The notes under the pieces were generated by a model that worked only from the letters and a program-made list of their open reading frames with translations, searched no databases and had not been told where the DNA came from. 64,000 nucleotides of DNA from the NCBI RefSeq assembly GCF_030384885.1, contig NZ_CP128613.1. The stretch is one strand, 5' to 3'. Shown here piece after piece: positions 1,530 to 62,116 of this stretch (its first letter is position 1; each line of letters opens with the position of its first letter). The stretch comes from Escherichia coli. GTDB taxonomy: Bacteria; Pseudomonadota; Gammaproteobacteria; Enterobacterales; Enterobacteriaceae. The position numbers and the translations under genes are program-made.

Positions 1530-1702
1530 CAAGTTCTTTTGCGTTGCATTGCTGGCGTAAATGTCAGCAATGCAGCATTTCCTCACGATTCTTCTTTGAC
1601 GATCGCACTTTTTGCTCGTTATGATGGCGTCGCTAGCCTCAGTAAATCCTTACTCCGGCGGTGCGCAACCTGTGCGCGTGAACCACTATCTGAATGCTCA
1701 TC

Positions 1703-2637: not shown

Positions 2638-2820
2638 GTAGGCAGGATAAGGCGTTTACGCCGCATCAGGCATTCGGAGCACGATGCCTGATGCGATGCT
2701 TGCGCATCTTATCAGGCCTACAAACGTGACGCGTCCGTAGGCAGGATAAGGCGTTCACGCCGCATCCGGCATTCGGTGCACGATGCCTGATGCGATGCTT
2801 CTATTTGCATCAGGCATCCA
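2638..2820. repeat. REP/BIME cluster (at least two REP units) between convergent pbpG and dld
   Basis: Duplicated ggcaggataaggcgtt(t/c)acgccgcatc(a/c)ggcattcgg...gatgcctgatgcgatgctt units. Confidence 0.85.
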
Positions 2821-22182: not shown

Positions 22183-22265
22183 AAAAAAACCTGCTGGTGA
22201 GGCAGGTTCTTTTATTTACTACTTTCAGGCCTAACACCACGGCCTGTGCAACATCGTGTTCCAAC
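22183..22265 (-). ncRNA. orzO: OrzO-like type I antitoxin sRNA (boundaries estimated)
   Basis: Minus-strand -35 TTGCAA (22295-22300), 17-nt spacer, -10 TATAAT (rc of 22272-22277); intrinsic terminator at 22182-22214; 5' ~20 nt (rc of 22246-22265) complementary to toxin 5'UTR 22412-22431 with one mismatch. Confidence 0.6.
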
Positions 22266-22759: not shown

Positions 22760-22972
22760 GCGAAAAATATCTGGAAACCAGATCGCGGAAAATAAAAAAA
22801 CCTGCTGGTGAGGCAGGTTCTTTTATTTACTACTTTGACGATAACTTGCTGATTGTGCAACATTTCGTACCAACGAGTAAATTATAACCATATCCACACT
22901 CCATTGCAATTCAGTGAGTGAGATTTATAATCCTGCCCCTTGGGAGGTTGTGCCGGATCGGACCAATTTGAA
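22760..22972. repeat. Copy 2 of the repeat; truncated toxin-antitoxin unit with no toxin ORF
   Basis: Homology to copy 1 ends about 15 nt before the yehK stop codon; terminator and both promoters conserved. Confidence 0.85.
22793..22876 (-). ncRNA. Second Orz-like sRNA gene (OrzP-like), apparently orphan
   Basis: Minus-strand -10 (rc of attata 22882-22887) and -35 ttgcaa 22904-22909; terminator at 22793-22825; 5' pairing region diverged (gtgcaacatttcgtaccaac). Confidence 0.5.
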
Positions 22973-27018: not shown

Positions 27019-30000
27019 TTATTCAAACAGGGCTTCGATGTCGTTAATTAACTCGCTAGCGGTGATGTCATCGAGTGCGGAGAACAGCGCTTCCTGTGTT
27101 GAATTAATCCCCCAGCCATAGCTTTCTGCTTTGCCTTCCCATAGCCACAGCTTGCTTAAGAGTTGCTCGGCACTGAGTTCGGCTGGCGACATACCAACTG
27201 CAAATCCTTCATCGATTTCCATGATTAATGACCAGCGGCCCAGAGGTTTGATCATCCAGCCGATCCAGCCACCGTCCTGCGGTTCACCACGCACCCAGCC
27301 TTTATTCGACAGCCCCATAACCCGACCGCTCGGGCATTTTCTGCCTGCCCAGCGGGTTAGTTCGCTGGTGTTTCGTTCGACTTCAGTCAGGGCATAACTG
27401 TTGCGGTCGAGCTGGCGGAACGGCGGTAACAGCTCGTAGTCGGCAAAAAGCTGACCAAAGGCGGCGGCATCCGTCGGTGATATTTCCAGAACGTGAGGAA
27501 TACCTATAGAGATATCGCCTTCCGGCAGGGTGAAAAGATCATCGTCAGCGGTGCTGTAGCTGTTATCTTCCGCCACACGGAAGCACGCCAGTAACTGGTT
27601 GTCTGCGCTATAAATGCCCCAAATCAGACGGCGGGTTAAGTGGCAGACCAGCGGATTCTCAACCAGAAAGAGCTGAAAGTTTTCTGGCGACCAGCGGCGG
27701 CGCAGGCACATGGCGGATTCCAGCCTTGCCACCTGCTGGGCGGCAACGGTACGCGCATCTTTTTTCAGCAGTTTGTAGCGGTTAACTGCATCGTTCGCTT
27801 GGGTTTCATCATCGCTTTTGTTCGGTTTAGGCAAGTCTTTCAGGCGGCTGCCGGAAGCATCACGCACAAACGGTTTTAAGGTTTCATCAAAGCTGACGGT
27901 GAACTGCCGTGGCCCGAAATCCAGCAGCAGCGAACCGTTATCATCCAGACCGAGATCGGGCGCTAAGCGATCTTCAAGTTCTGCCACTGTGAGTTCGCGG
28001 CTTTCGGCAATGTCGGCAATTTTTTCTTTTGCCCGCTCCTGTAATGCTTTGAATTTCAGTTTCTGGGCGATGCCGTTAAGCTGCATCAGGGCGATATCAC
28101 TACCGATAGCAGCGAGAATATCCAGCCCGACGGTGGCGCGTTTATGCTGGGATTCACCAGGCCAGGCGCGGATTAATGGCGTCAGTTTGCGGGCGGTGTC
28201 ATCGTTGCCAAGAACACCTAATGCAGTGAACGCCCAGCTCTCTTTCGACGGCGCGCCAGCGGTCTCCCAGGCGGTAAACAGATCCCAGGCAAACTCAGCC
28301 AGTGAGTCGGCAGTACAGGCGTCTTTCACCTGTAATAACCCCGCATACAGCGTATCTTCCTGAGGGAAGCGGAGCATTTCACCGAGGTGGAAGAGGGCGC
28401 TATCTGGCAGTGATTGGGCGTTTGCTTTTAATACCGGGCGTGTCCAGAGCGATGGCTGATAAAAGGCCGGAAGTGTCGGGATTTTAGTCGGGTGATTATC
28501 TAAGGGATCGAGCGCAAGTAGAGCGTTCACCGCATCGGTTACTTCCGGCTGGTTATAACGCTGGGCGATTTCTTGCAGTAATGACGGATAACCACTTTCA
28601 ATCAACATACGTAAGGCGGCGCGGGCGTTATCCTGGGCTTCACCAGCTTTGCCGAGTGCCGCAGGCAACAGGCCGATAATGGCATGTTCCGGATATTTCA
28701 GCAGCCAGGTGCGGGCGTCTTGTCGTAGAGTTTTGAGTTTGTTAAAGGCGCGGGCGACGGCAGGAGCCAGCTCACTCGCTGCGAAGTAATTCGTTATGGG
28801 CAAGGCTTCCTGTGGATAGCGTGCAAGTGAGTTTACTAACCCAGGTAATCCTTTGAGTCCAAAATGTAACATGGCGTATTCGGTATCGGTATGCGGAGAT
28901 ACAGTAAGGGCATTCCATGCTCTTATTGCTTTCTCCAGCGGCAATGTTGTCAAAATCCCCAAATGCCAATAATGCCCGGTAGGTGAATGAAACACCTTAA
29001 ATTCACTTATTAAGGTTGAATAATCTTCATTTAGCCATGCCTCAACTACCGCTTCGGGAGCTTTAATATATGTACCAGCGATCCGTCGTTGAAAACCCAT
29101 CCTTGCCAACAGATTGGCAGTACTTTCTTCATGACTAACCGTGATGTGTTTTGAATACCAGATATATTTCGCCAAAAGTTGATTACTGATTTCTTCTGTC
29201 AGATAACTGATTGGCTCAATGCCTAATGGTGCTAAATCAAGCACCGGAATCGACGATTTTTTCTTTTTCGAAAGCCATGGTGGGGAGACTACTATGGCCG
29301 GCAGTAGATCGGTGCTGGCATGGTTTGAGGGCTGTGTCAGTTGTTGCTGGCATGATTTCAGCACTGCAGCTGCGGGTGTCGAAAGCCAGGGAATGACCTG
29401 TTCTGCCAGTGCTGGTTGCGAGATAAGCATCGTCATTAGCATAATGCGCCAACTATTCTCTTCTTTTTGCACTAGAAGTTCCGCCAGTGCTGCCAGTGCT
29501 GCGTGTGGGAACGCAGCGCAGGCTTTCGTCATTCGATCGTGACAGCGTTTAGTATGCCCGGCTACACGTATAAGCAGTGTTAATGCGAACGGATGATTGA
29601 TATGACGCAACACATCGGCGCAGTAGTCACTTGCGGCATAGGGAGCAAATCGGGGCAGGGCTGCAACACCTTGCTCCTGTAATACGGTGGCTGACCATAT
29701 CGCACCACAATAGTAATCATCAAAAATGGCATATGGCTCGTGATATTTTTCTAATGAGGCAAGAATGTGCTCATCAGTCGCCACTATTTTTAGCCACTCA
29801 AGCGAGGGTAATTTTTTTTTCCCCAGTAGACGCTGGGCAATTTCATGTGCAATTTCTGGTTTTTCGGGTAATAACAAAGCAATTAATGGTTGCCGCCATT
29901 CTGGAATATGTGGAATTGCGGCAATGAGTTTTTGTGCACATTTTTGCCAGAGAGACTCTTCCGCCAGTGATAAATGTTTCCGTAGGCGTAATTCAAAACT

Positions 30001-30813
30001 GGAATATTGCTGCAAGTTATCAGGTGCAATGCCAGACGGCAGAATAATAATGATATTATTCGCATAATTCCATTCAATATCAATCTGTTGAAGGTGTATT
30101 ATTACATCAGTAGCATATTCCAGACCGCCTTCCTGAATGATCTGATCCATAACATCCTCACGCACTTTATATCTTGTGCATTTCATTTCAAGTGCCGTGA
30201 GTACAGCCATTACTGGTGATGGTAACTGTGTTGTTTTCAGGCAGTCGATCTGACTGATCGCCTGGGCGACGGTGTTTTGCCATACTAAAGAACAGGCGCT
30301 GAAGTCAAATGTGGCTGTTTTATTATCCCGTTGCGACACGCTACAGGCTAAGCGACGTAACTGGGTCAAGTTGTCTGCTTGCTGAACAGGAACTCCGGGA
30401 AAGCGGCGATGGCTTAACGTGGTGTGTACAACTTCGGGCGGAAAAACGACAGCAATATCTTTCGCCAGCCACGGTAAAACATCATCTGTATTTTTGTCAG
30501 CCACACGGGCTTCTGCTACGCAAAAGGGTTGTTCCTGAATAATGGTGGATAAGGCCGCTACCTTGAGAGAATCCGTTACCGTTTGGGAAGGTTGCAAAGA
30601 ATTATCCTTCGCTTGCTCCACATACCCCTTCTTCATCTTCTCCGCAATCAGCCTCAGTTCCGCTTTTTCCGCCGCCGCAGCATCAGCAAAGCTTTTTACC
30701 TGGCTTTGCCCGTTGGTACCAACTTTGCCCCAACTAATATGCAGCTCGTTTCCCTGTTGCTCCACTGCCCAGAATTTATGTGATTTTTCGTCCTGATAAA
30801 TATAGGTTTTCAT
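27019..30813 (-). CDS. molR: MolR-like protein, WGR domain plus DUF4132 (1264 aa), copy A
   Basis: N-terminus MKTYIYQDEKSHKFWAVEQQGNELHISWGKVGTNGQ is a WGR domain; C-terminal DUF4132-like region; 3-nt gap to yehI start; which copy corresponds to K-12 molR is uncertain. Confidence 0.85.
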   Translation of the reverse strand: MKTYIYQDEKSHKFWAVEQQGNELHISWGKVGTNGQSQVKSFADAAAAEKAELRLIAEKMKKGYVEQAKDNSLQPSQTVTDSLKVAALSTIIQEQPFCVAEARVADKNTDDVLPWLAKDIAVVFPPEVVHTTLSHRRFPGVPVQQADNLTQLRRLACSVSQRDNKTATFDFSACSLVWQNTVAQAISQIDCLKTTQLPSPVMAVLTALEMKCTRYKVREDVMDQIIQEGGLEYATDVIIHLQQIDIEWNYANNIIIILPSGIAPDNLQQYSSFELRLRKHLSLAEESLWQKCAQKLIAAIPHIPEWRQPLIALLLPEKPEIAHEIAQRLLGKKKLPSLEWLKIVATDEHILASLEKYHEPYAIFDDYYCGAIWSATVLQEQGVAALPRFAPYAASDYCADVLRHINHPFALTLLIRVAGHTKRCHDRMTKACAAFPHAALAALAELLVQKEENSWRIMLMTMLISQPALAEQVIPWLSTPAAAVLKSCQQQLTQPSNHASTDLLPAIVVSPPWLSKKKKSSIPVLDLAPLGIEPISYLTEEISNQLLAKYIWYSKHITVSHEESTANLLARMGFQRRIAGTYIKAPEAVVEAWLNEDYSTLISEFKVFHSPTGHYWHLGILTTLPLEKAIRAWNALTVSPHTDTEYAMLHFGLKGLPGLVNSLARYPQEALPITNYFAASELAPAVARAFNKLKTLRQDARTWLLKYPEHAIIGLLPAALGKAGEAQDNARAALRMLIESGYPSLLQEIAQRYNQPEVTDAVNALLALDPLDNHPTKIPTLPAFYQPSLWTRPVLKANAQSLPDSALFHLGEMLRFPQEDTLYAGLLQVKDACTADSLAEFAWDLFTAWETAGAPSKESWAFTALGVLGNDDTARKLTPLIRAWPGESQHKRATVGLDILAAIGSDIALMQLNGIAQKLKFKALQERAKEKIADIAESRELTVAELEDRLAPDLGLDDNGSLLLDFGPRQFTVSFDETLKPFVRDASGSRLKDLPKPNKSDDETQANDAVNRYKLLKKDARTVAAQQVARLESAMCLRRRWSPENFQLFLVENPLVCHLTRRLIWGIYSADNQLLACFRVAEDNSYSTADDDLFTLPEGDISIGIPHVLEISPTDAAAFGQLFADYELLPPFRQLDRNSYALTEVERNTSELTRWAGRKCPSGRVMGLSNKGWVRGEPQDGGWIGWMIKPLGRWSLIMEIDEGFAVGMSPAELSAEQLLSKLWLWEGKAESYGWGINSTQEALFSALDDITASELINDIEALFE

Positions 30814-30825
30814 TGCAAAGTCCTT

Positions 30826-33800
30826 TTAATCAAAAAGTGATTCAACATCGTTAATCAACTCGCTGGCGGTGATGTCGTCGAGCATGGAAAAAGTAAGTAA
30901 AGGTTGTTTACCGTAGCGATCATCTGGCGAGGTGATTTTTACGCTTTCAACAGGTAACAGGTCGCCATAACCTGTTTCACCATAAATTAATGAAAAATGT
31001 TCTGTTTCAAGTTCGAGATCGCCATAAGGGGTAGATTTGCGCATCGCATAGACGCTGCCGCTTTCTTCCAGACGTTGCCAGCCTCGGCGCTCTAGCCCGA
31101 CAATACGTCCGGCCTGACAGAGCTGTCCTTGCCAGCGTGTCAGGTCGTGGGTATTCCGTTCATTATCAGCAAGACGATAACTACCACGATCGAGCTGTTG
31201 GAAGGGGGGAAGCAGTTCGTAATCAGCGTAAATTTGCCTGAATGCAGCGGCAGATTCAGGGGGGATTTCCAGCACATGCGGTATACCGATGTTTCCTGCT
31301 GGCAGCGTGAATAACTCATCCTGCGCATCGCTGTAAGTGCTGTCTTCTGCGACCCGGAAGCAGGCAATCAGCGTGTTTTCTTCAGTATATACTCCCCATA
31401 ACAGCCGTCGGGTTAAGTGACGTACCAGCGGATGCTCCACCAGAAACAGGCGGAACTGTTCTGCCGTCCAGCGTCTGCGCTGGCACATAGCCTGCTCCAG
31501 ACGATCAATCTGCTGACTGGCAATGGCGCGCACATCTTTCTTCAATTGTTTGAAGAGGTTAACGGCGTCAGTTGCCAGTGTTTTATCATCGCTCTGATTT
31601 GGTTTGGGTAAATCTTTCAGGACTTTGCCGTTTGCATCGCGCACTACAGGTTTTAAGGTTTCGTCAAAACCAACGGTGAATTGACGTGGGCCGAAATTAA
31701 GTATCAGCGAGCCGTTGATATCAAGCCCTAAATCTGGAGCCAGGCGGTCTTCCAGTTCGGCCATAGTCAGCCCACGGTTTTCAGCAACTATGTTGATTTT
31801 CTCGCGGGCATGTTCCTGTAATACAACGAATTTAATCTTTTTCGCAATGCCATTAAGCAGCATTAGCGCAACATCGCTGCCAATATCAGCTAATACATCC
31901 AACCCGGACACCGCCCGTTTATGCTGTGATTCCCCAGGCCAGGCACTGATAAGCGGGGTTAATTTACGCGCGGTGTCGTCATTGCCTAAAATCCCCAGCG
32001 AAGTAAATGCCCAGTTTTCTTTTGCGGGTGCGCCAGCTTCTGTCCAGGCGGTATACAGATCCCAGCCAAAGTCAGCCAGTGATTCGCGAGTGAAGGTTTC
32101 TTTGATGATCTCCAGCCCAGCGTAGGCGGTAATGTCGCGAGGAAAGCTCAGCATAGTGCCCAGGTGGCGCATAGCGTCATCTGGTAGAGGCAGGTTGTTA
32201 CTTTTAAGCCGTGGTCTGCGCCATAAGGTGAACTGATAAAAGCCGGGCAGTGGGGCGATTTTTGCGGGATATTCTTCCAGAGGATCGCTATCAAATAATG
32301 TTGCCAGCGCAGCTAAAACATCAGGTTGATTATATCCTTGCGCGATTTTCTCAATCGTTTCTCGCTGGTTTAATTTCACTAGCAGGCGGAGCGCCTGGCG
32401 GGCATATTCCCGATTTTGGCACGGTTTGCCCAGTGCCAAAGGCAGTAGCCCGGCGGCGGCATGGCGCGGGTTATTTGCCAGCCAATTAACGGCATCCTTG
32501 TAAGCCATTTTTTTCTGTAACCGCTGCGCCATTGGTAAGGCTAGTTCACTGGCCCCAATAAAGAGGGTGAATATCCACAGTCGTTGATGATCTCGTTGCA
32601 AGCAGGTCATAAACGCAGGAATGGCCGTACTACCAAAAACTGCCAGAATCTCTTTCTCACCTGAATATCGCTCCTCAATGATTATTTGGTTGAGAAATGA
32701 AATCGCCTGTTGTCCCGGTAAGTAACAAAGCGCAGATAAATTCCAGCTTTTGTTGGCATTGTTGTGATATTTCGCAAACTCAGCTTTTAGTGCTGGAAAA
32801 TCAAAGCGCAACAAGGCATCAACAGCGCTTTGCGGTATGTATTTTTTTTCATGTAAGTCATCTTCGCAATGCAGCCATTCATTAAAACCTAATTGCCAAA
32901 GGATTTGTTGTTCTGGTGTAAAAGGAATGAAAGATGTCTCCCAGCTTTCTTTTTCAATTAGTGGTAGGTCGGTAAATAAGGTTTGCTGTGATGCCTGATA
33001 TTTCGCGATTTCACTGAATCTGGATATGTCAGTGTGACTGATTAACTCTGTAATTCCTGGTGTGATATCCGTGACGGCAGGAATGGGAAGCACAGGTAAA
33101 TCAAATACGGGTATTACATTTTTCTTCTTATTTATTATCCACGGTGGAGCGACAAATAGCTGCGGCAACATATCCGCAGTGGCATACTCACATTCTTTAG
33201 CTACTGACTGAGGACGACATTCAGATAAGATGCCTGCCGCTTTAGCATTAACCCAGGGAATGACGTCAGTGACTAACTCTGGCGTGACGGTAATCAGTTT
33301 GACAAGCGCGTTGCGCCACTGTGCATCTTCATGTATTGCCAGCAAAGTAGCATAAGCGGCAATAGCCGCAGCGGGATGTTTTTGGCAGGCTTTGCTTAAG
33401 TATTCCAGGTGCTTTTTCTTGCCATTTACACCGAGGATCAGAATTTGAATCGCATCCGGGTGATTCGTTTTCCATAGCCATTTGACAAGATCTTCAGTCT
33501 CGCTGATGCGCTCGAAGAGATAAGTGGGATTGTCAGAATGCTCTTCCACAAACTCAGTAAGTATCCGGCTTACACCGCGCCCCCCATTATTTGCCAGCAA
33601 CATTGCCAGATAAGCGCGAAAATCACGATACAACGGTGGGAAGTCGTATTTTTCTGCTGTAGTCAGAGCTATATCATCGGTTACTACCAGTCTTAACCAG
33701 GTTATCGCCGGAACGTTTTGGTCTGCATAATGTAGCGCCATAGCATTGGCAATATCCGGGCGTTCAGGGAGCAGTAACGCGGCAAAAGGTTGCCGTGCTG

Positions 33801-34623
33801 GGGATAGCGTCGGAATAGCAGTAAGCACTTTATCCACACAGCGTTGCCACTCATCTTCTGAAGCGAGTGAAAGATGATGACATAGACGTTGATGCCAACT
33901 CGGTAGCGATTCTGCTTCGTGATTAGGTGGAATGATGGTGGTTACTGCGCCTTTTACTGGTTTATATTTGAGTTGAAGAGCGAGAAGGGCGATTTCAACG
34001 GCACTTTCCAGACCACAGCGAATGACTAAGTCATCGACCAGTTCATCTTGAGAGTAAGAGTTCCAAAAGCCCCAGAGCAATGCTGCATCAGATTGCGCAC
34101 TCCCTGTCGGTTGATTACCCTGAACTCGCATTTGTAACTCAGCAAAAGCCTGCTGCCAGTTTTCTGGATAAGAGCGGTAATTATTGTCGGGGTCATATGC
34201 CCTGGTGTTATTCGCGATGCGCTTCCATATTTGACCATCTTTGTGCAGATAATTGATATCTCTGGGGCGAGAGCGATGTGGAAAAGCAAATCGGTTAATA
34301 TCGTCGGTTAGCGGAATGACTGCATCATCAGCCAGCCATGGGCGTTTGTTTTTACTCTCGGGTGAAGTTTCAACGTCAGGAGTGACTTTGGTGACGGGGG
34401 GGATATGCACGTTTGCCGAAGCGTCTTCCACATAGCCTTTTTTCGTTTTCTCAGCGATAAGCTTCAGTTCCGCTTTTTCCGCCGCCGCAGCATCCGCAAA
34501 GCTTTTTATCTGGCTTTGCCCTTGGGTGCCAACTTTTCCCCAACTGATATGCAACTCGTTACCTTGCTGCCCCACCGCCCAGAATTTATGCGATTTTTCG
34601 TCCTGGTAGATATAACTCTTCAT
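30826..34623 (-). CDS. MolR-like protein, WGR domain plus DUF4132 (1265 aa), copy B
   Basis: N-terminus MKSYIYQDEKSHKFWAVGQQGNELHISWGKVGTQGQ; diverged central region; conserved C-terminus; 12-nt gap to copy A. Confidence 0.85.
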   Translation of the reverse strand: MKSYIYQDEKSHKFWAVGQQGNELHISWGKVGTQGQSQIKSFADAAAAEKAELKLIAEKTKKGYVEDASANVHIPPVTKVTPDVETSPESKNKRPWLADDAVIPLTDDINRFAFPHRSRPRDINYLHKDGQIWKRIANNTRAYDPDNNYRSYPENWQQAFAELQMRVQGNQPTGSAQSDAALLWGFWNSYSQDELVDDLVIRCGLESAVEIALLALQLKYKPVKGAVTTIIPPNHEAESLPSWHQRLCHHLSLASEDEWQRCVDKVLTAIPTLSPARQPFAALLLPERPDIANAMALHYADQNVPAITWLRLVVTDDIALTTAEKYDFPPLYRDFRAYLAMLLANNGGRGVSRILTEFVEEHSDNPTYLFERISETEDLVKWLWKTNHPDAIQILILGVNGKKKHLEYLSKACQKHPAAAIAAYATLLAIHEDAQWRNALVKLITVTPELVTDVIPWVNAKAAGILSECRPQSVAKECEYATADMLPQLFVAPPWIINKKKNVIPVFDLPVLPIPAVTDITPGITELISHTDISRFSEIAKYQASQQTLFTDLPLIEKESWETSFIPFTPEQQILWQLGFNEWLHCEDDLHEKKYIPQSAVDALLRFDFPALKAEFAKYHNNANKSWNLSALCYLPGQQAISFLNQIIIEERYSGEKEILAVFGSTAIPAFMTCLQRDHQRLWIFTLFIGASELALPMAQRLQKKMAYKDAVNWLANNPRHAAAGLLPLALGKPCQNREYARQALRLLVKLNQRETIEKIAQGYNQPDVLAALATLFDSDPLEEYPAKIAPLPGFYQFTLWRRPRLKSNNLPLPDDAMRHLGTMLSFPRDITAYAGLEIIKETFTRESLADFGWDLYTAWTEAGAPAKENWAFTSLGILGNDDTARKLTPLISAWPGESQHKRAVSGLDVLADIGSDVALMLLNGIAKKIKFVVLQEHAREKINIVAENRGLTMAELEDRLAPDLGLDINGSLILNFGPRQFTVGFDETLKPVVRDANGKVLKDLPKPNQSDDKTLATDAVNLFKQLKKDVRAIASQQIDRLEQAMCQRRRWTAEQFRLFLVEHPLVRHLTRRLLWGVYTEENTLIACFRVAEDSTYSDAQDELFTLPAGNIGIPHVLEIPPESAAAFRQIYADYELLPPFQQLDRGSYRLADNERNTHDLTRWQGQLCQAGRIVGLERRGWQRLEESGSVYAMRKSTPYGDLELETEHFSLIYGETGYGDLLPVESVKITSPDDRYGKQPLLTFSMLDDITASELINDVESLFD

Positions 34624-45574: not shown

Positions 45575-45667
45575 TTTCACAACGTTATTGTAATCCCGCC
45601 GTTTTTCCTCGTTTACAACGTGTGCGCGGGACATTACCATCCATCTCTGCGATTCATCATCGCAACC

Positions 45668-45790
45668 AAACGACTCGGGGTGCCCTTCTGCGTGAAGGCT
45701 GAGAAATACCCGTATCACCTGATCTGGATAATGCCAGCGTAGGGAAGTCACAGACCACCAGGTCATTGCTTCTTCACGTTATGGCAGGAG
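45668..45790 (+). ncRNA. TPP (thi-box) riboswitch in the thiM leader
   Basis: cgactcggggtgcccttctgcgtgaaggctgagaaatacccgtatcacctgatctggataatgccagcgtagggaagtc matches the thiM TPP aptamer; expression platform runs to the SD of thiM. Confidence 0.9.
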
Positions 45791-53609: not shown

Positions 53610-53648
53610 CCCCGTAGGGCGGATAAGGCGTTCGCGCCGCATCTGACA
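53610..53648. repeat. REP element
   Basis: ccccgtagggcggataaggcgttcgcgccgcatctgaca. Confidence 0.8.
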
Positions 53649-53671
53649 TAAAACAACGTGCACTTTGTTAC

Positions 53672-53698
53672 GGCTTCCCCCGGGAGGCCGTTTTTATT
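53672..53698 (+). terminator. Putative intrinsic terminator after fbaB
   Basis: ggcttcccccgggaggcc hairpin followed by gtttttatt. Confidence 0.55.
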
Positions 53699-53801
53699 GC
53701 CTGTCATTCTGGATTGATTTTCATATTGTCTTTTTTGTGATCGATATCGCGACATTTGGAAACAAAAAATTTCATTATATTTTGAAATCGAAAATAAATA
53801 A

Positions 53802-55959
<2,158 letters not shown>

Positions 55960-55968
55960 GGACGGTAT

Positions 55969-56418
55969 ATGACTAACCTGTTTGTTCGTAGCGGAATTTC
56001 TTTTGTCGATCGTAGCGAAGTTTTAACCCATATCGGTAATGAGATGATCGCGAAAGGTGTGGTTCATGAAACCTGGCCACAGGCATTAATTGCCAGAGAA
56101 GCAGAATTCCCCACCGGGATAATGCTTGAACAGCACGCCATTGCAATACCGCATTGTGAGGCGATTCATGCTAAGTCGTCAGCCATTTATCTGTTAAGAC
56201 CGGCGAATAAAATAAAGTTTCAGCAAGCTGATGATGATAACGACGTGGCGGTGTCGTTGATTATCGCGCTGATTGTCGAAAATCCGCAGCAGCAACTGAA
56301 GCTTTTGCGGTGCTTATTTGGCAAGTTGCAGCAACCAGATATCGTTGAAACGCTAATCACCATTTCTGAATCGCAATTAAAGGAATATTTCACACAGCAT
56401 ATTTTAGATTCCGAATAA
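55969..56418 (+). CDS. gatA: Galactitol PTS enzyme IIA
   Basis: 149 aa PTS IIA-like. Confidence 0.9.
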   Translation: MTNLFVRSGISFVDRSEVLTHIGNEMIAKGVVHETWPQALIAREAEFPTGIMLEQHAIAIPHCEAIHAKSSAIYLLRPANKIKFQQADDDNDVAVSLIIALIVENPQQQLKLLRCLFGKLQQPDIVETLITISESQLKEYFTQHILDSE

Positions 56419-56452
56419 CCAAAAACCTCTGTACCAATAAAAAGGATTGATT

Positions 56453-56737
56453 ATGAAACGCAAGATTATTGTCGCTTGCGGAGGCGCGGTTGCGACCTCT
56501 ACGATGGCGGCGGAAGAAATTAAAGAGTTGTGCCATAGCCATAATATCCCCGTTGAAGTAATCCAGTGTCGGGTTAATGAAATAGAAACCTATATGGATG
56601 GTGTACATCTTATTTGTACTACCGCCAGAGTTGACCGCAGTTTTGGCGATATTCCGTTAGTTCACGGCATGCCTTTTGTTTCTGGTGTCGGTATCGAAGC
56701 ATTACAAAATAAAATTCTGACTATCTTACAGGGGTGA
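56453..56737 (+). CDS. gatB: Galactitol PTS enzyme IIB
   Basis: 94 aa from ATG 56453 ([16 protein letters not shown]; active-site Cys). Confidence 0.9.
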
Positions 56738-56740
56738 CCT

Positions 56741-58096
56741 ATGTTTTCAGAAGTCATGCGTTATATTCTCGACCTCGGCCCTACGGTCATGTTGCCGATT
56801 GTCATCATTATTTTTTCTAAGATATTAGGCATGAAGGCAGGCGATTGCTTTAAAGCGGGTCTGCATATCGGGATTGGCTTTGTTGGCATCGGCCTGGTGA
56901 TTGGCTTAATGCTGGATTCCATTGGCCCGGCGGCGAAAGCGATGGCGGAAAATTTCGACCTGAATCTGCATGTGGTCGATGTCGGCTGGCCGGGCTCTTC
57001 ACCAATGACCTGGGCGTCGCAAATTGCGCTGGTGGCGATTCCGATTGCGATTCTGGTTAACGTGGCGATGCTACTGACCCGTATGACGCGGGTGGTAAAT
57101 GTTGATATATGGAATATCTGGCATATGACCTTCACCGGCGCATTGCTGCATCTGGCAACCGGTTCATGGATGATAGGGATGGCGGGTGTGGTAATTCACG
57201 CGGCGTTTGTTTATAAGCTCGGCGACTGGTTTGCCCGCGATACCCGAAATTTCTTTGAGCTGGAAGGCATTGCTATTCCGCACGGTACGTCGGCGTATCT
57301 GGGGCCAATTGCGGTGCTGGTGGATGCTATCATCGAGAAAATCCCAGGCGTTAACCGTATTAAATTTAGCGCCGACGATATTCAGCGCAAATTTGGCCCA
57401 TTTGGCGAACCTGTCACTGTGGGCTTTGTTATGGGGCTGATTATCGGCATCCTCGCGGGTTACGATGTCAAAGGTGTATTGCAGCTGGCGGTAAAAACGG
57501 CGGCAGTTATGCTGCTGATGCCACGGGTGATTAAACCCATCATGGATGGTTTAACGCCCATCGCTAAGCAGGCCCGTAGTCGTTTACAGGCGAAGTTCGG
57601 CGGTCAGGAGTTCCTGATTGGCCTTGATCCGGCGTTGCTGCTGGGGCATACGGCGGTGGTATCGGCAAGCCTGATTTTTATCCCGCTCACCATTTTAATT
57701 GCTGTTTGTGTTCCGGGTAATCAGGTACTGCCGTTTGGCGACCTTGCCACCATCGGCTTCTTTGTTGCGATGGCAGTTGCCGTGCATCGTGGAAATCTGT
57801 TCCGCACCTTAATCTCGGGTGTCATCATTATGAGCATCACCCTGTGGATCGCGACGCAAACTATTGGTTTGCACACCCAACTGGCGGCTAATGCTGGGGC
57901 GTTAAAAGCCGGGGGCATGGTGGCTTCAATGGATCAGGGCGGTTCTCCCATTACCTGGTTACTGATTCAGGTTTTCTCCCCGCAAAATATTCCCGGTTTC
58001 ATTATTATCGGTGCCATTTATCTTACCGGTATTTTCATGACCTGGCGTAGAGCGCGCGGCTTTATTAAACAAGAGAAAGCCGTTCTCGCAGAATAA
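56741..58096 (+). CDS. gatC: Galactitol PTS enzyme IIC
   Basis: 451 aa multi-TM. Confidence 0.93.
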   Translation: MFSEVMRYILDLGPTVMLPIVIIIFSKILGMKAGDCFKAGLHIGIGFVGIGLVIGLMLDSIGPAAKAMAENFDLNLHVVDVGWPGSSPMTWASQIALVAIPIAILVNVAMLLTRMTRVVNVDIWNIWHMTFTGALLHLATGSWMIGMAGVVIHAAFVYKLGDWFARDTRNFFELEGIAIPHGTSAYLGPIAVLVDAIIEKIPGVNRIKFSADDIQRKFGPFGEPVTVGFVMGLIIGILAGYDVKGVLQLAVKTAAVMLLMPRVIKPIMDGLTPIAKQARSRLQAKFGGQEFLIGLDPALLLGHTAVVSASLIFIPLTILIAVCVPGNQVLPFGDLATIGFFVAMAVAVHRGNLFRTLISGVIIMSITLWIATQTIGLHTQLAANAGALKAGGMVASMDQGGSPITWLLIQVFSPQNIPGFIIIGAIYLTGIFMTWRRARGFIKQEKAVLAE

Positions 58097-58143
58097 TTTT
58101 TACCTGAGGGGGAGTTTATCCCCCTTAATAATCAGGAGTTTTT

Positions 58144-59184
58144 ATGAAATCAGTGGTGAATGATACTGATGGTATCGTACGCGTTGCCCAACGAGTCATT
58201 CCTGAAATTAAACATCAGGATGAGGTGCGGGTAAAAATTGCCAGCTCGGGATTATGTGGTTCCGATTTACCCAGAATTTTTAAAAATGGTGCACATTATT
58301 ATCCAATAACGTTAGGCCATGAATTTAGCGGCTATATTGATGCTGTGGGATCCGGTGTTGATGATTTACATCCTGGCGATGCGGTTGCCTGTGTGCCGTT
58401 ATTACCCTGTTTTACTTGTCCAGAGTGTCTGAAAGGGTTTTATTCCCAGTGCGCAAAATATGATTTTATTGGCTCACGGCGTGATGGTGGGTTTGCCGAA
58501 TATATTGTCGTTAAGCGGAAAAATGTCTTTGCTCTACCTGCGCATATGCCTATTGAGGATGGGGCTTTTATTGAACCGATTACCGTTGGCCTGCATGCTT
58601 TCCATTTAGCGCAAGGTTGTGAGAATAAAAACGTTATTATTATTGGTGCCGGAACCATTGGCCTGCTGGCCATTCAGTGCGCTGTCGCGCTGGGAGCAAA
58701 GAGTGTGACGGCTATCGACATTAGCTCAGAAAAACTGGCACTGGCAAAATCTTTCGGTGCGATGCAAACATTTAACAGCCTTGAAATGAGCGCGCCGCAA
58801 ATGCAGCCCGTTTTACGCGAGCTGCGCTTTAATCAGCTTATCCTCGAGACGGCTGGCGTCCCGCAAACCGTCGAACTGGCGGTAGAGATTGCCGGGCCTC
58901 ATGCCCAGCTGGCGCTGGTGGGCACGTTGCATCAGGATCTGCATTTAACATCGACAACGTTTGGCAAAATATTACGTAAAGAGCTGACGGTTATCGGCAG
59001 TTGGATGAACTACTCCAGCCCTTGGCCGGGGCAGGAGTGGGAAACGGCGAGCCGGTTGCTGACAGAACGTAAGTTAAGCCTGGAGCCATTAATCGCTCAC
59101 CGTGGAAGCTTTGAAAGCTTCGCCCAGGCGGTGCGTGACATCGCTCGTAATGCTATGCCGGGCAAAGTGTTGCTTATTCCCTGA
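58144..59184 (+). CDS. gatD: Galactitol-1-phosphate 5-dehydrogenase (Zn-dependent)
   Basis: 346 aa; MDR family with Zn-binding Cys/His motifs (GHEFSG, CxxCxxC). Confidence 0.93.
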   Translation: MKSVVNDTDGIVRVAQRVIPEIKHQDEVRVKIASSGLCGSDLPRIFKNGAHYYPITLGHEFSGYIDAVGSGVDDLHPGDAVACVPLLPCFTCPECLKGFYSQCAKYDFIGSRRDGGFAEYIVVKRKNVFALPAHMPIEDGAFIEPITVGLHAFHLAQGCENKNVIIIGAGTIGLLAIQCAVALGAKSVTAIDISSEKLALAKSFGAMQTFNSLEMSAPQMQPVLRELRFNQLILETAGVPQTVELAVEIAGPHAQLALVGTLHQDLHLTSTTFGKILRKELTVIGSWMNYSSPWPGQEWETASRLLTERKLSLEPLIAHRGSFESFAQAVRDIARNAMPGKVLLIP

Positions 59185-59289
59185 AACCGCGGGCCAGCGT
59201 GATGCTGGCCCGGTATTGTGCAAAACAGATCATTCACCAATGGTCCCCCTTCGTTTACACTAGCCACAATTGAATATGGGTAAATGACG

Positions 59290-60063
59290 ATGAATTCATT
59301 CGAGCGAAGGAATAAGATCATCCAATTAGTGAATGAACAGGGAACCGTGCTTGTTCAGGATCTGGCGGGAGTATTTGCTGCCTCGGAAGCGACAATCCGT
59401 GCCGATTTGCGCTTTCTCGAACAAAAAGGCGTGGTTACGCGCTTTCATGGCGGTGCGGCGAAAATAATGTCCGGTAATAGTGAAACCGAGACCCAGGAAG
59501 TCGGGTTTAAAGAGCGATTTCAGCTCGCCAGCGCACCGAAAAACAGAATAGCGCAGGCGGCAGTCAAAATGATCCACGAAGGGATGACCGTTATTCTCGA
59601 CAGCGGAAGTACGACAATGCTTATCGCCGAAGGTTTAATGACCGCCAAAAATATCACGGTGATTACCAACAGTCTCCCGGCGGCGTTTGCCCTTTCCGAA
59701 AATAAAGACATTACTCTGGTCGTCTGTGGTGGCACGGTCCGCCATAAAACGCGCTCGATGCATGGCTCCATTGCCGAGCGTTCATTGCAGGATATTAATG
59801 CCGATTTAATGTTTGTCGGTGCTGATGGTATTGATGCGGTTAATGGTATTACGACCTTTAATGAAGGTTATTCGATTAGCGGTGCGATGGTCACAGCCGC
59901 TAATAAAGTGATTGCCGTTCTCGATTCATCGAAATTTAACCGTCGCGGTTTTAATCAGGTACTACCAATCGAAAAAATTGACATTATTATTACCGATGAT
60001 GCCGTGTCAGAGGTGGATAAACTGGCATTGCAGAAGACACGGGTGAAATTAATTACGGTGTAG
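59290..60063 (+). CDS. gatR: DeoR-family repressor of the gat operon (intact)
   Basis: 257 aa from ATG 59290 (alternative start 59284); DeoR HTH N-terminus; uninterrupted reading frame. Confidence 0.88.
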   Translation: MNSFERRNKIIQLVNEQGTVLVQDLAGVFAASEATIRADLRFLEQKGVVTRFHGGAAKIMSGNSETETQEVGFKERFQLASAPKNRIAQAAVKMIHEGMTVILDSGSTTMLIAEGLMTAKNITVITNSLPAAFALSENKDITLVVCGGTVRHKTRSMHGSIAERSLQDINADLMFVGADGIDAVNGITTFNEGYSISGAMVTAANKVIAVLDSSKFNRRGFNQVLPIEKIDIIITDDAVSEVDKLALQKTRVKLITV

Positions 60064-60144
60064 CATTGTTCTTTATGCCGGATAAGGTGTGTACACCGAA
60101 TCCGGCATCACTGATACTCCCTGAATTAAGAAAGAGAAATTTGA

Positions 60145-61457: not shown

Positions 61458-61775
61458 ATGAAAAAGACAGCTGCTATATCATTAATTAGTGTTTTTCTTA
61501 TGTCTGGTTGTGCTGTGCATAATGATGAGACAAGTATCGGTAAATTCGGTCTTGCCTATAAAAGTAATATCCAGCGTAAACTCGATAACCAATACTACAC
61601 TGAAGCCGAAGCATCTTTAGCCAGGGGAAGAATATCTGGTGCGGAAAATATAGTGAAAAATGATGCAGCTAATTTCTGTGTTACTCAGGGCAAAAAAATG
61701 CAGATAGTTAACCTGAAGACTGAAGGGGCAGGATTACATGGCGTCGCGCGTCTGACATTCAAATGTGGAGAGTGA
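61458..61775 (+). CDS. yegR: Small lipoprotein YegR
   Basis: ATG at 61458 after SD; 105 aa beginning MKKTAAISLISVFLMSGCAV (lipobox). Confidence 0.8.
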   Translation: MKKTAAISLISVFLMSGCAVHNDETSIGKFGLAYKSNIQRKLDNQYYTEAEASLARGRISGAENIVKNDAANFCVTQGKKMQIVNLKTEGAGLHGVARLTFKCGE

Positions 61776-61945
61776 GAATATTTTTTTGTAAGCGTCAAAC
61801 ATGCGCGTTCTGGTTGTGCGTAGCCGGAGCCTGTACGAGCACGATGCCGTTAAGTGAAAGGCATCGTGCTATGAAGGGGGATTCTATCGATGTGGTCAAT
61901 GGAAGACGGTCACCTGGGATCAATCCGTCTCTATGGTTTATGCAT

Positions 61946-62032
61946 AAAAAATAAGCCCGTGTAAGGGAGATTACACAGGCTAAGGAGGTGGTTCCTGGTA
62001 CAGCTAGCATTTTATGGGTTATGTTTTTCAGC
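61946..62032 (-). ncRNA. cyaR: CyaR (RyeE) Hfq-dependent sRNA
   Basis: Minus strand reads GCTGAAAAACATAACCCATAAAATGCTAGCTGTACCAGGAACCACCTCCTTAGCCTGTGTAATCTCCCTTACACGGGCTTATTTTTT, matching CyaR including its terminator, as recalled. Confidence 0.9.
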
Positions 62033-62116
62033 GAAACGGATGATAACCTTAATAAATGCAGCTGTATGTGATCGGTTTCTAAGAATTTTCCATCCGGGAA
62101 AAATAATCGAAATTAA

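Follow-up and report, generated by a model that had tools for sequence, protein, structure and literature searches.

The question raised by this locus is whether gatR, the repressor gene that lies directly after the galactitol operon gatYZABCD, is functional, and whether galactitol catabolism would be inducible in the Escherichia coli strain from which the DNA came. The initial annotation of the 64,000 nucleotides analyzed here (the window) had described a DeoR-family regulator downstream of gatD as one continuous frame, and this is what we found. The ORF listing gives a single unbroken frame of 774 nt on the plus strand (Table 1), with both domains of the family at full length; careful translation showed neither a frameshift nor an internal stop, the two defects named in that annotation as fatal to its reading. 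No IS sequence is present in the gene. The open frame with the first in-frame ATG runs from 59284 to 60063 and the ATG at 59290 is the second one. In strain 2013C-4282, whose gatR locus is 100% identical to that of the window, PGAP annotates the same 774 nt, in agreement with a start at 59290, and both gene limits agree with the outer limits of K-12 b4498. Judging from the sequence and from published experiments on an identical protein, we estimate at about 0.9 the probability that the gene encodes a wild-type, functional GatR, the DeoR-family protein that represses the gatYZABCD operon for the galactitol PTS and galactitol catabolism.

Membership in the DeoR family is indicated by both of its defining domains, an N-terminal HTH and a full-length C-terminal DeoRC domain, the latter detected by Pfam with an E value of 2.5e-51 and 174.2 bits (cut-off 31.8) over profile positions 5–159 of 160. 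Since both Pfam domains are matched, the frame is not a chance ORF. The sole relative in the sequence search for solved structures was the DeoR C-terminal domain 7l6l (E 1.9e-11). Exactly the same protein is found on at least 1000 contigs, under the source name “galactitol utilization operon repressor”.

The comparison with the K-12 gatR region, which the initial annotation had proposed as a check, confirmed the insertion element that it named: the insertion site is continuous in the window and split in MG1655. For the MG1655 genome (NC_000913.3) RefSeq lists gatR (b4498) as a pseudogene in pieces of 299 and 475 nt, separated by an IS3E at 2170171–2171428 that carries insE5 and insF5. The insertion point corresponds to window position 59588/59589, at codon 100 of the gene. 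At the first MG1655 junction, gatR ...GGGATGAC adjoins the IS3 end TGATCCTACC, and at the second one GACCGTTATT comes directly after the IS3 end ...GGTAAGATCA. These junction sequences indicate that the insertion duplicated the triplet GAC, whose assignment is based on the reading of the junctions, the RefSeq annotation and the split of a BLAST match at query position 487. When the two MG1655 fragments were joined, a 774-nt frame was restored whose translation is identical to the window GatR. At the nucleotide level the window gene differs from the rebuilt one by 11 substitutions, all of them synonymous, leaving no amino-acid change. The same protein (WP_001295426.1) is encoded by E. coli HS and by NCM3722, a K-12 strain. 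The attribution of the lesion to K-12 in general has therefore to be narrowed: it stands for MG1655, but NCM3722 is a K-12 derivative with an intact gatR, so the IS3E insertion is not universal among K-12 derivatives. It had been reported that gatR is intact in NCM3722 and disrupted in MG1655 only (PMC3045373).

How frequently the gene is found intact was assessed by BLAST with a query of 1101 nt (gatD 3' end, gatR and yegS 3' end) against 5426 complete E. coli genomes. Some match was obtained in 5109 genomes and none in 317, and the match was contiguous (at least 80% of the query) in 4756 (87.7%). A probe of 100 nt across the K-12 gatR::IS3E junction had a full-length match in 344 genomes, a number that fits the ~348 records with a split match to the longer query; the carriers among the matches listed (ER1709, RP437 and MG1655) were all laboratory strains of the K-12 type. 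If these 344 genomes all belong to the 353 non-contiguous ones, only about nine others would have a large disruption of another kind, and ~99.8% of the genomes that have gat but lack the K-12 junction would have a contiguous gatR, a figure that is an upper bound on intactness because BLAST coverage is blind to point frameshifts. In E. coli an intact gatR is the species norm and the wild-type state, to which the MG1655 copy is the exception. That the gene is normally intact was already known, as was the K-12 lesion, which is found in textbooks. As the intact state is the norm, its presence in this window is not notable.

The proposal that the insertion makes gat expression constitutive in K-12 agrees with the literature, in which constitutive or elevated expression is credited to it (PMC3045373; PMC5850726; bioRxiv 10.64898/2026.01.05.697630). 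Expression of gat is higher in MG1655 than in NCM3722, which was credited to the MG1655-only disruption of gatR (PMC3045373). When the HS gatR was put in place of the MG1655 pseudogene, galactitol was still used and the operon was regulated; in mice, new IS insertions in the HS gatR of MG1655 gave rise to constitutive mutants again (Sousa et al., PMC5850726). Silencing of gatR was beneficial in the mouse gut for LF82 and CFT073, indicating that the repressor is active in natural isolates, and MG1655 gave no gatR-silencing signal, “due to an insertion of IS3E” (bioRxiv 10.64898/2026.01.05.697630). Since the window GatR is the HS allele that restored regulation, the best-supported reading is that galactitol catabolism should be inducible in the source strain. 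This is supported by the HS-identical GatR, the identical gatD-gatR spacer, the intact structural genes and the conserved gatY promoter blocks. Silent inactivation of gatR, by a missense change or by loss of its promoter, was considered and rejected, the protein and the spacer being identical to those of functional alleles. We take EC3132 to be a further E. coli strain with a functional GatR allele.

That this very protein represses gat is established. In the detailed mechanism that we propose, without galactitol GatR would bind the gatY promoter region through its N-terminal HTH and block transcription. Binding would most likely take place at the palindrome TTTCA-N8-TGAAA over the −10, and GatR would probably also occupy the promoter of its own gene, in the spacer behind gatD. 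Galactitol would enter via EII-Gat, a phosphorylated pathway intermediate would bind the DeoRC domain and the repressor would be released. By analogy with sugar-phosphate sensors elsewhere in the DeoR family, the inducer may be galactitol-1-phosphate or tagatose-6-phosphate. The CRP-like site upstream of gatY would add catabolite control. MG1655 differs in that the splitting of gatR by IS3E at codon 100 leaves gat constitutive.

The region upstream of gatY was aligned for nine Escherichia sequences. The blocks TTTTTGTGATCG and TTTTGAAATCGAAA are unchanged in all nine, and ATTTTCATATTGTC is altered only in Escherichia sp. E1V33, by a single change. The palindrome TTTCATTATATTTTGAAA is invariant at 17 of its 18 positions, arms included, its variation being confined to the central N8 position, where EDL933 and GN06758 have A>G. 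It occurs once within the window, in a copy identical to that of K-12, and being unique there and overlapping the likely −10 it is a reasonable candidate for the GatR operator. A two-strand search for a motif common to the regions upstream of gatY (53695–53813) and gatR (59185–59289) gave no match that exceeded those of shuffled controls. The fbaB-gatY intergenic region is 80 bp shorter than its counterpart in K-12 and HS, and the idea that promoter elements had been lost with the difference was rejected: the 80 bp amount to a single REP unit, which lies upstream of the fbaB terminator and is not promoter DNA. At 53635/53636, between the fbaB stop codon and the terminator, the window has a single REP unit vs. 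a two-unit REP/BIME array in K-12 and HS (~80 bp), and the same short form is found in GN06758.

The window shares its gatD-gatR spacer at 100% identity with K-12 MG1655, HS, EDL933, GN06758, MFDS1022581 and RMDEC465, and at 99% with Escherichia whittamii. The spacer contains a GC-rich hairpin of 9 bp without a U-tract at 59190–59212 (−21.1 kcal/mol, z −2.2). A sigma-70 scan with a threshold of 9 matches out of 12 gave no promoter in the spacer; a putative weak gatR promoter, read by eye and with 8 of 12 matches under that threshold, is a candidate (TTCACC at 59233–59238 and TACACT at 59256–59261, separated by 17 nt). Rfam searches, by gathering score and by E value, found no match in the spacer or in gatR, the sole sub-threshold match being REP-like and located past the stop codon. 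Over 58900–59500, which runs from the 3' end of gatD across the spacer into the 5' end of gatR, E. coli lineages are 93–100% identical (96–100% from 59000 onwards). Conservation of this segment exceeds the local background of ~96–97%, the lineages otherwise differing by 2–4%. The stretch ~59200–59500 is nearly invariant (97–99%) in E. whittamii too. Such invariance could be due to regulatory constraint or to a segment spread by recombination.

The operon itself (53814–59184, plus strand) has no internal stops. Its six products score above their NCBIfam cut-offs, and the gene limits are backed by the annotation of the identical strain 2013C-4282. gatR follows 105 nt downstream of gatD, with yegS convergent on its 3' side. 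The gatZ-gatA-gatB stretch is a rare allele, found at ≥99% identity in two of the 5426 genomes and at ≥95% in 24. Identity between the window and HS was 90% for gatA, 93% for gatB, 93.7% for gatZ and 98.6% for gatR. The divergence in gatA begins abruptly near 56198 and marks a patch of ~500 nt (~56198–56700) that takes in the gatA 3' half, the gatA-gatB spacer and most of gatB. In comparisons over 100 nt at a time, the patch (~56200–56700) is 94–99% identical to E. whittamii and E1V33 and 80–88% to the common E. coli alleles, with the reverse pattern at the flanks, which are nearer to common E. coli. A wobble-degenerate pattern specific for the allele was found among species-representative genomes only in E. 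whittamii and Escherichia sp. E1V33. By these identities the patch looks like a short import by interspecies recombination. GatA has 149 aa in the window vs. 150 in K-12 and HS, and the presence of this exact protein on 657 contigs indicates an established allele and not an error. Decay of the gat operon is recurrent. In MG1655 gatC is a frameshifted pseudogene of 1358 nt, and in RMDEC465, one of the nearest relatives in terms of the gat allele, gatC contains an internal stop and gatD an IS4; all gat genes of the window, gatC among them, are intact.

Some observations refer to other parts of the window. Between yegR and cyaR (61775–62034) the cryptic P2-like prophage remnant PR-X of K-12 (ogrK, yegZ; ~630 bp by cyaR) is absent, as in HS. 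One of the two probable DUF4132 paralogues would by position correspond to yehI of NCM3722, where the first of the pair is frameshifted; both are open in the window. A gap at 31000–34400 in the alignment with HS was considered as an insertion and rejected, the compared HS stretch ending inside the yehH/yehI paralogues.

Table 1. Position of the features identified in the window.
Feature	Position	Strand	Remarks
Peptidase-S11 RNA motif	1618–1698	+	Rfam, above gathering score
naRNA4/REP element	2641–2718	+	Rfam, above gathering score
OrzO-P antitoxin RNAs (zor-orz type I toxin-antitoxin)	22183–22258, 22794–22867	−	Rfam, above gathering score
Two adjacent ORFs	27019–30813, 30826–34623	−	~1265 aa each; by position, probable DUF4132 paralogues next to metG
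thiM TPP riboswitch	45666–45762	+	Rfam, above gathering score
gatY promoter region	53695–53813	+	downstream of fbaB terminator (53670–53691)
CRP-like TGTGA-N6-TCGCG	53736–53751	+	putative CRP site
Perfect palindrome TTTCA-N8-TGAAA	53770–53787	+	candidate GatR operator; overlaps likely −10
gatY	53814–54668	+	intact
gatZ	54697–55959	+	intact
gatA	55969–56418	+	intact; NCBIfam 289.6 (cut-off 139)
gatB	56453–56737	+	intact; NCBIfam 200.4 (cut-off 95)
gatC	56741–58096	+	intact; NCBIfam 709.8 (cut-off 542)
gatD	58144–59184	+	intact; galactitol-1-phosphate 5-dehydrogenase, 722 bits (cut-off 550)
gatD-gatR spacer	59185–59289	+	105 nt; hairpin and candidate weak promoter
gatR CDS	59290–60063	+	257 aa + stop; alternative ATG at 59284 gives 259 aa
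HTH_DeoR (PF08220)	59305–59463	+	aa 8–60; E 1.3e-16, 60.5 bits (cut-off 21)
DeoRC effector-binding (sensor) domain (PF00455)	59536–59997	+	aa 85–238 of the 259-aa frame
GAC triplet	59586–59588	+	flanks IS3E as a duplication in MG1655; uninterrupted in the window
REP-type inverted repeat	60075–60108		16-nt arms; sub-threshold naRNA4 (REP-derived) match; between convergent gatR and yegS
CyaR sRNA	61949–62034	−	in the yegR-to-cyaR stretch 61775–62034

NCBIfam has no equivalog model for GatR, and one could suspect that the frame is another DeoR-family paralogue, similar to AgaR or SrlR, that merely adjoins gat, these being its top NCBIfam matches. Both fall under their cut-offs, with 232.9 bits for the AgaR model NF040755 (cut-off 260) and 226.3 bits for the SrlR model (cut-off 350). 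In addition, the protein is 100% identical to K-12 b4498 GatR and sits in the same gatD-yegS position, and the identical protein of HS was shown to regulate gat (PMC5850726). We regard this possibility as refuted: from its orthologous position and its identity to b4498 the gene is GatR, and neither AgaR nor SrlR. The doubt may also be moved from the repressor to its target, if substitutions in the gatY promoter or operator weakened the binding of GatR or CRP and made the operon partly constitutive or poorly inducible. The stretch 53700–53800 is indeed only 84–85% identical to K-12 and HS, about a dozen positions of the promoter region differ from these two strains, and three changes at or next to the CRP-like site, one of them within it (G>T, T>A and AA>GG), are common only to the window and MFDS1022581 among the nine sequences. 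However, the other substituted positions are variable sites that differ among ordinary strains too, the blocks that are invariant in the nine Escherichia, palindrome arms included, are unchanged in the window, and the same promoter variant is found in a second strain, whose operon is wholly intact. We consider this explanation highly improbable.

It would be more surprising if an intact repressor accompanied a pathway that cannot be used (a Gat-negative strain), for example through a chimeric GatA/GatB incompatible with an E. coli-type GatC. The mosaic patch, at only 80–88% identity to the common alleles, could suggest it, as could the lesions of RMDEC465, which place gat decay in the lineage group of the window allele, and the ease with which gat-negative mutants are selected in the gut (PMC5850726). 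But the six gat genes are of full length and above the equivalog cut-offs, and the recurrence of the exact 149-aa GatA on 657 contigs argues for a maintained allele; a non-functional pathway is hardly to be expected here. A different suggestion is that the locus, a mosaic by recombination, is more than a plain wild-type copy: the invariance of 58900–59500 would come from a recent spread of the repressor module across lineages, or from a regulatory element of the 105-nt spacer not described so far, and not from ordinary promoter constraint. We think this unlikely and prefer to see in the window a wild-type, functional gatR.

With such an intact gatR, the source strain is expected to behave like natural isolates, unlike MG1655. 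Caution is advisable in using K-12 as a standard of gat expression or of fitness in gut colonization, MG1655 being atypical in this regard. In mice, constitutive vs. regulated gat expression alters which mutants get selected (PMC5850726).

The comparison with known repressors can be extended beyond E. coli GatR. SrlR (GutR), the repressor of the glucitol operon, is like GatR a DeoR-family repressor of a hexitol PTS and aligns over the full length, but it controls a different operon and its score is well under the cut-off. AgaR, the repressor of the aga/kba genes for N-acetylgalactosamine and galactosamine, is the top-scoring named family, also over the full length, and has the same domain architecture as GatR, each controlling a PTS together with a tagatose-bisphosphate aldolase pathway; its genomic context and substrate are however unlike those of GatR and the score stays below the equivalog cut-off. 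In Salmonella Typhimurium, GatR represses the gat promoters and deletion of the HTH derepresses them (PMC7972205), so that it resembles E. coli GatR in function, as a repressor of gat promoters. Identity in amino-acid sequence links the window GatR to that of K-12 b4498 before the IS3E insertion and to those of HS and NCM3722, and in K-12 and HS the gene occupies the same place between gatD and yegS behind the same 105-nt upstream spacer. The window gatR differs from that of K-12 by the 11 synonymous substitutions and by having no IS3E, and its product would control a different, mosaic gatYZAB allele that is 90–95% identical to those of K-12 and HS.
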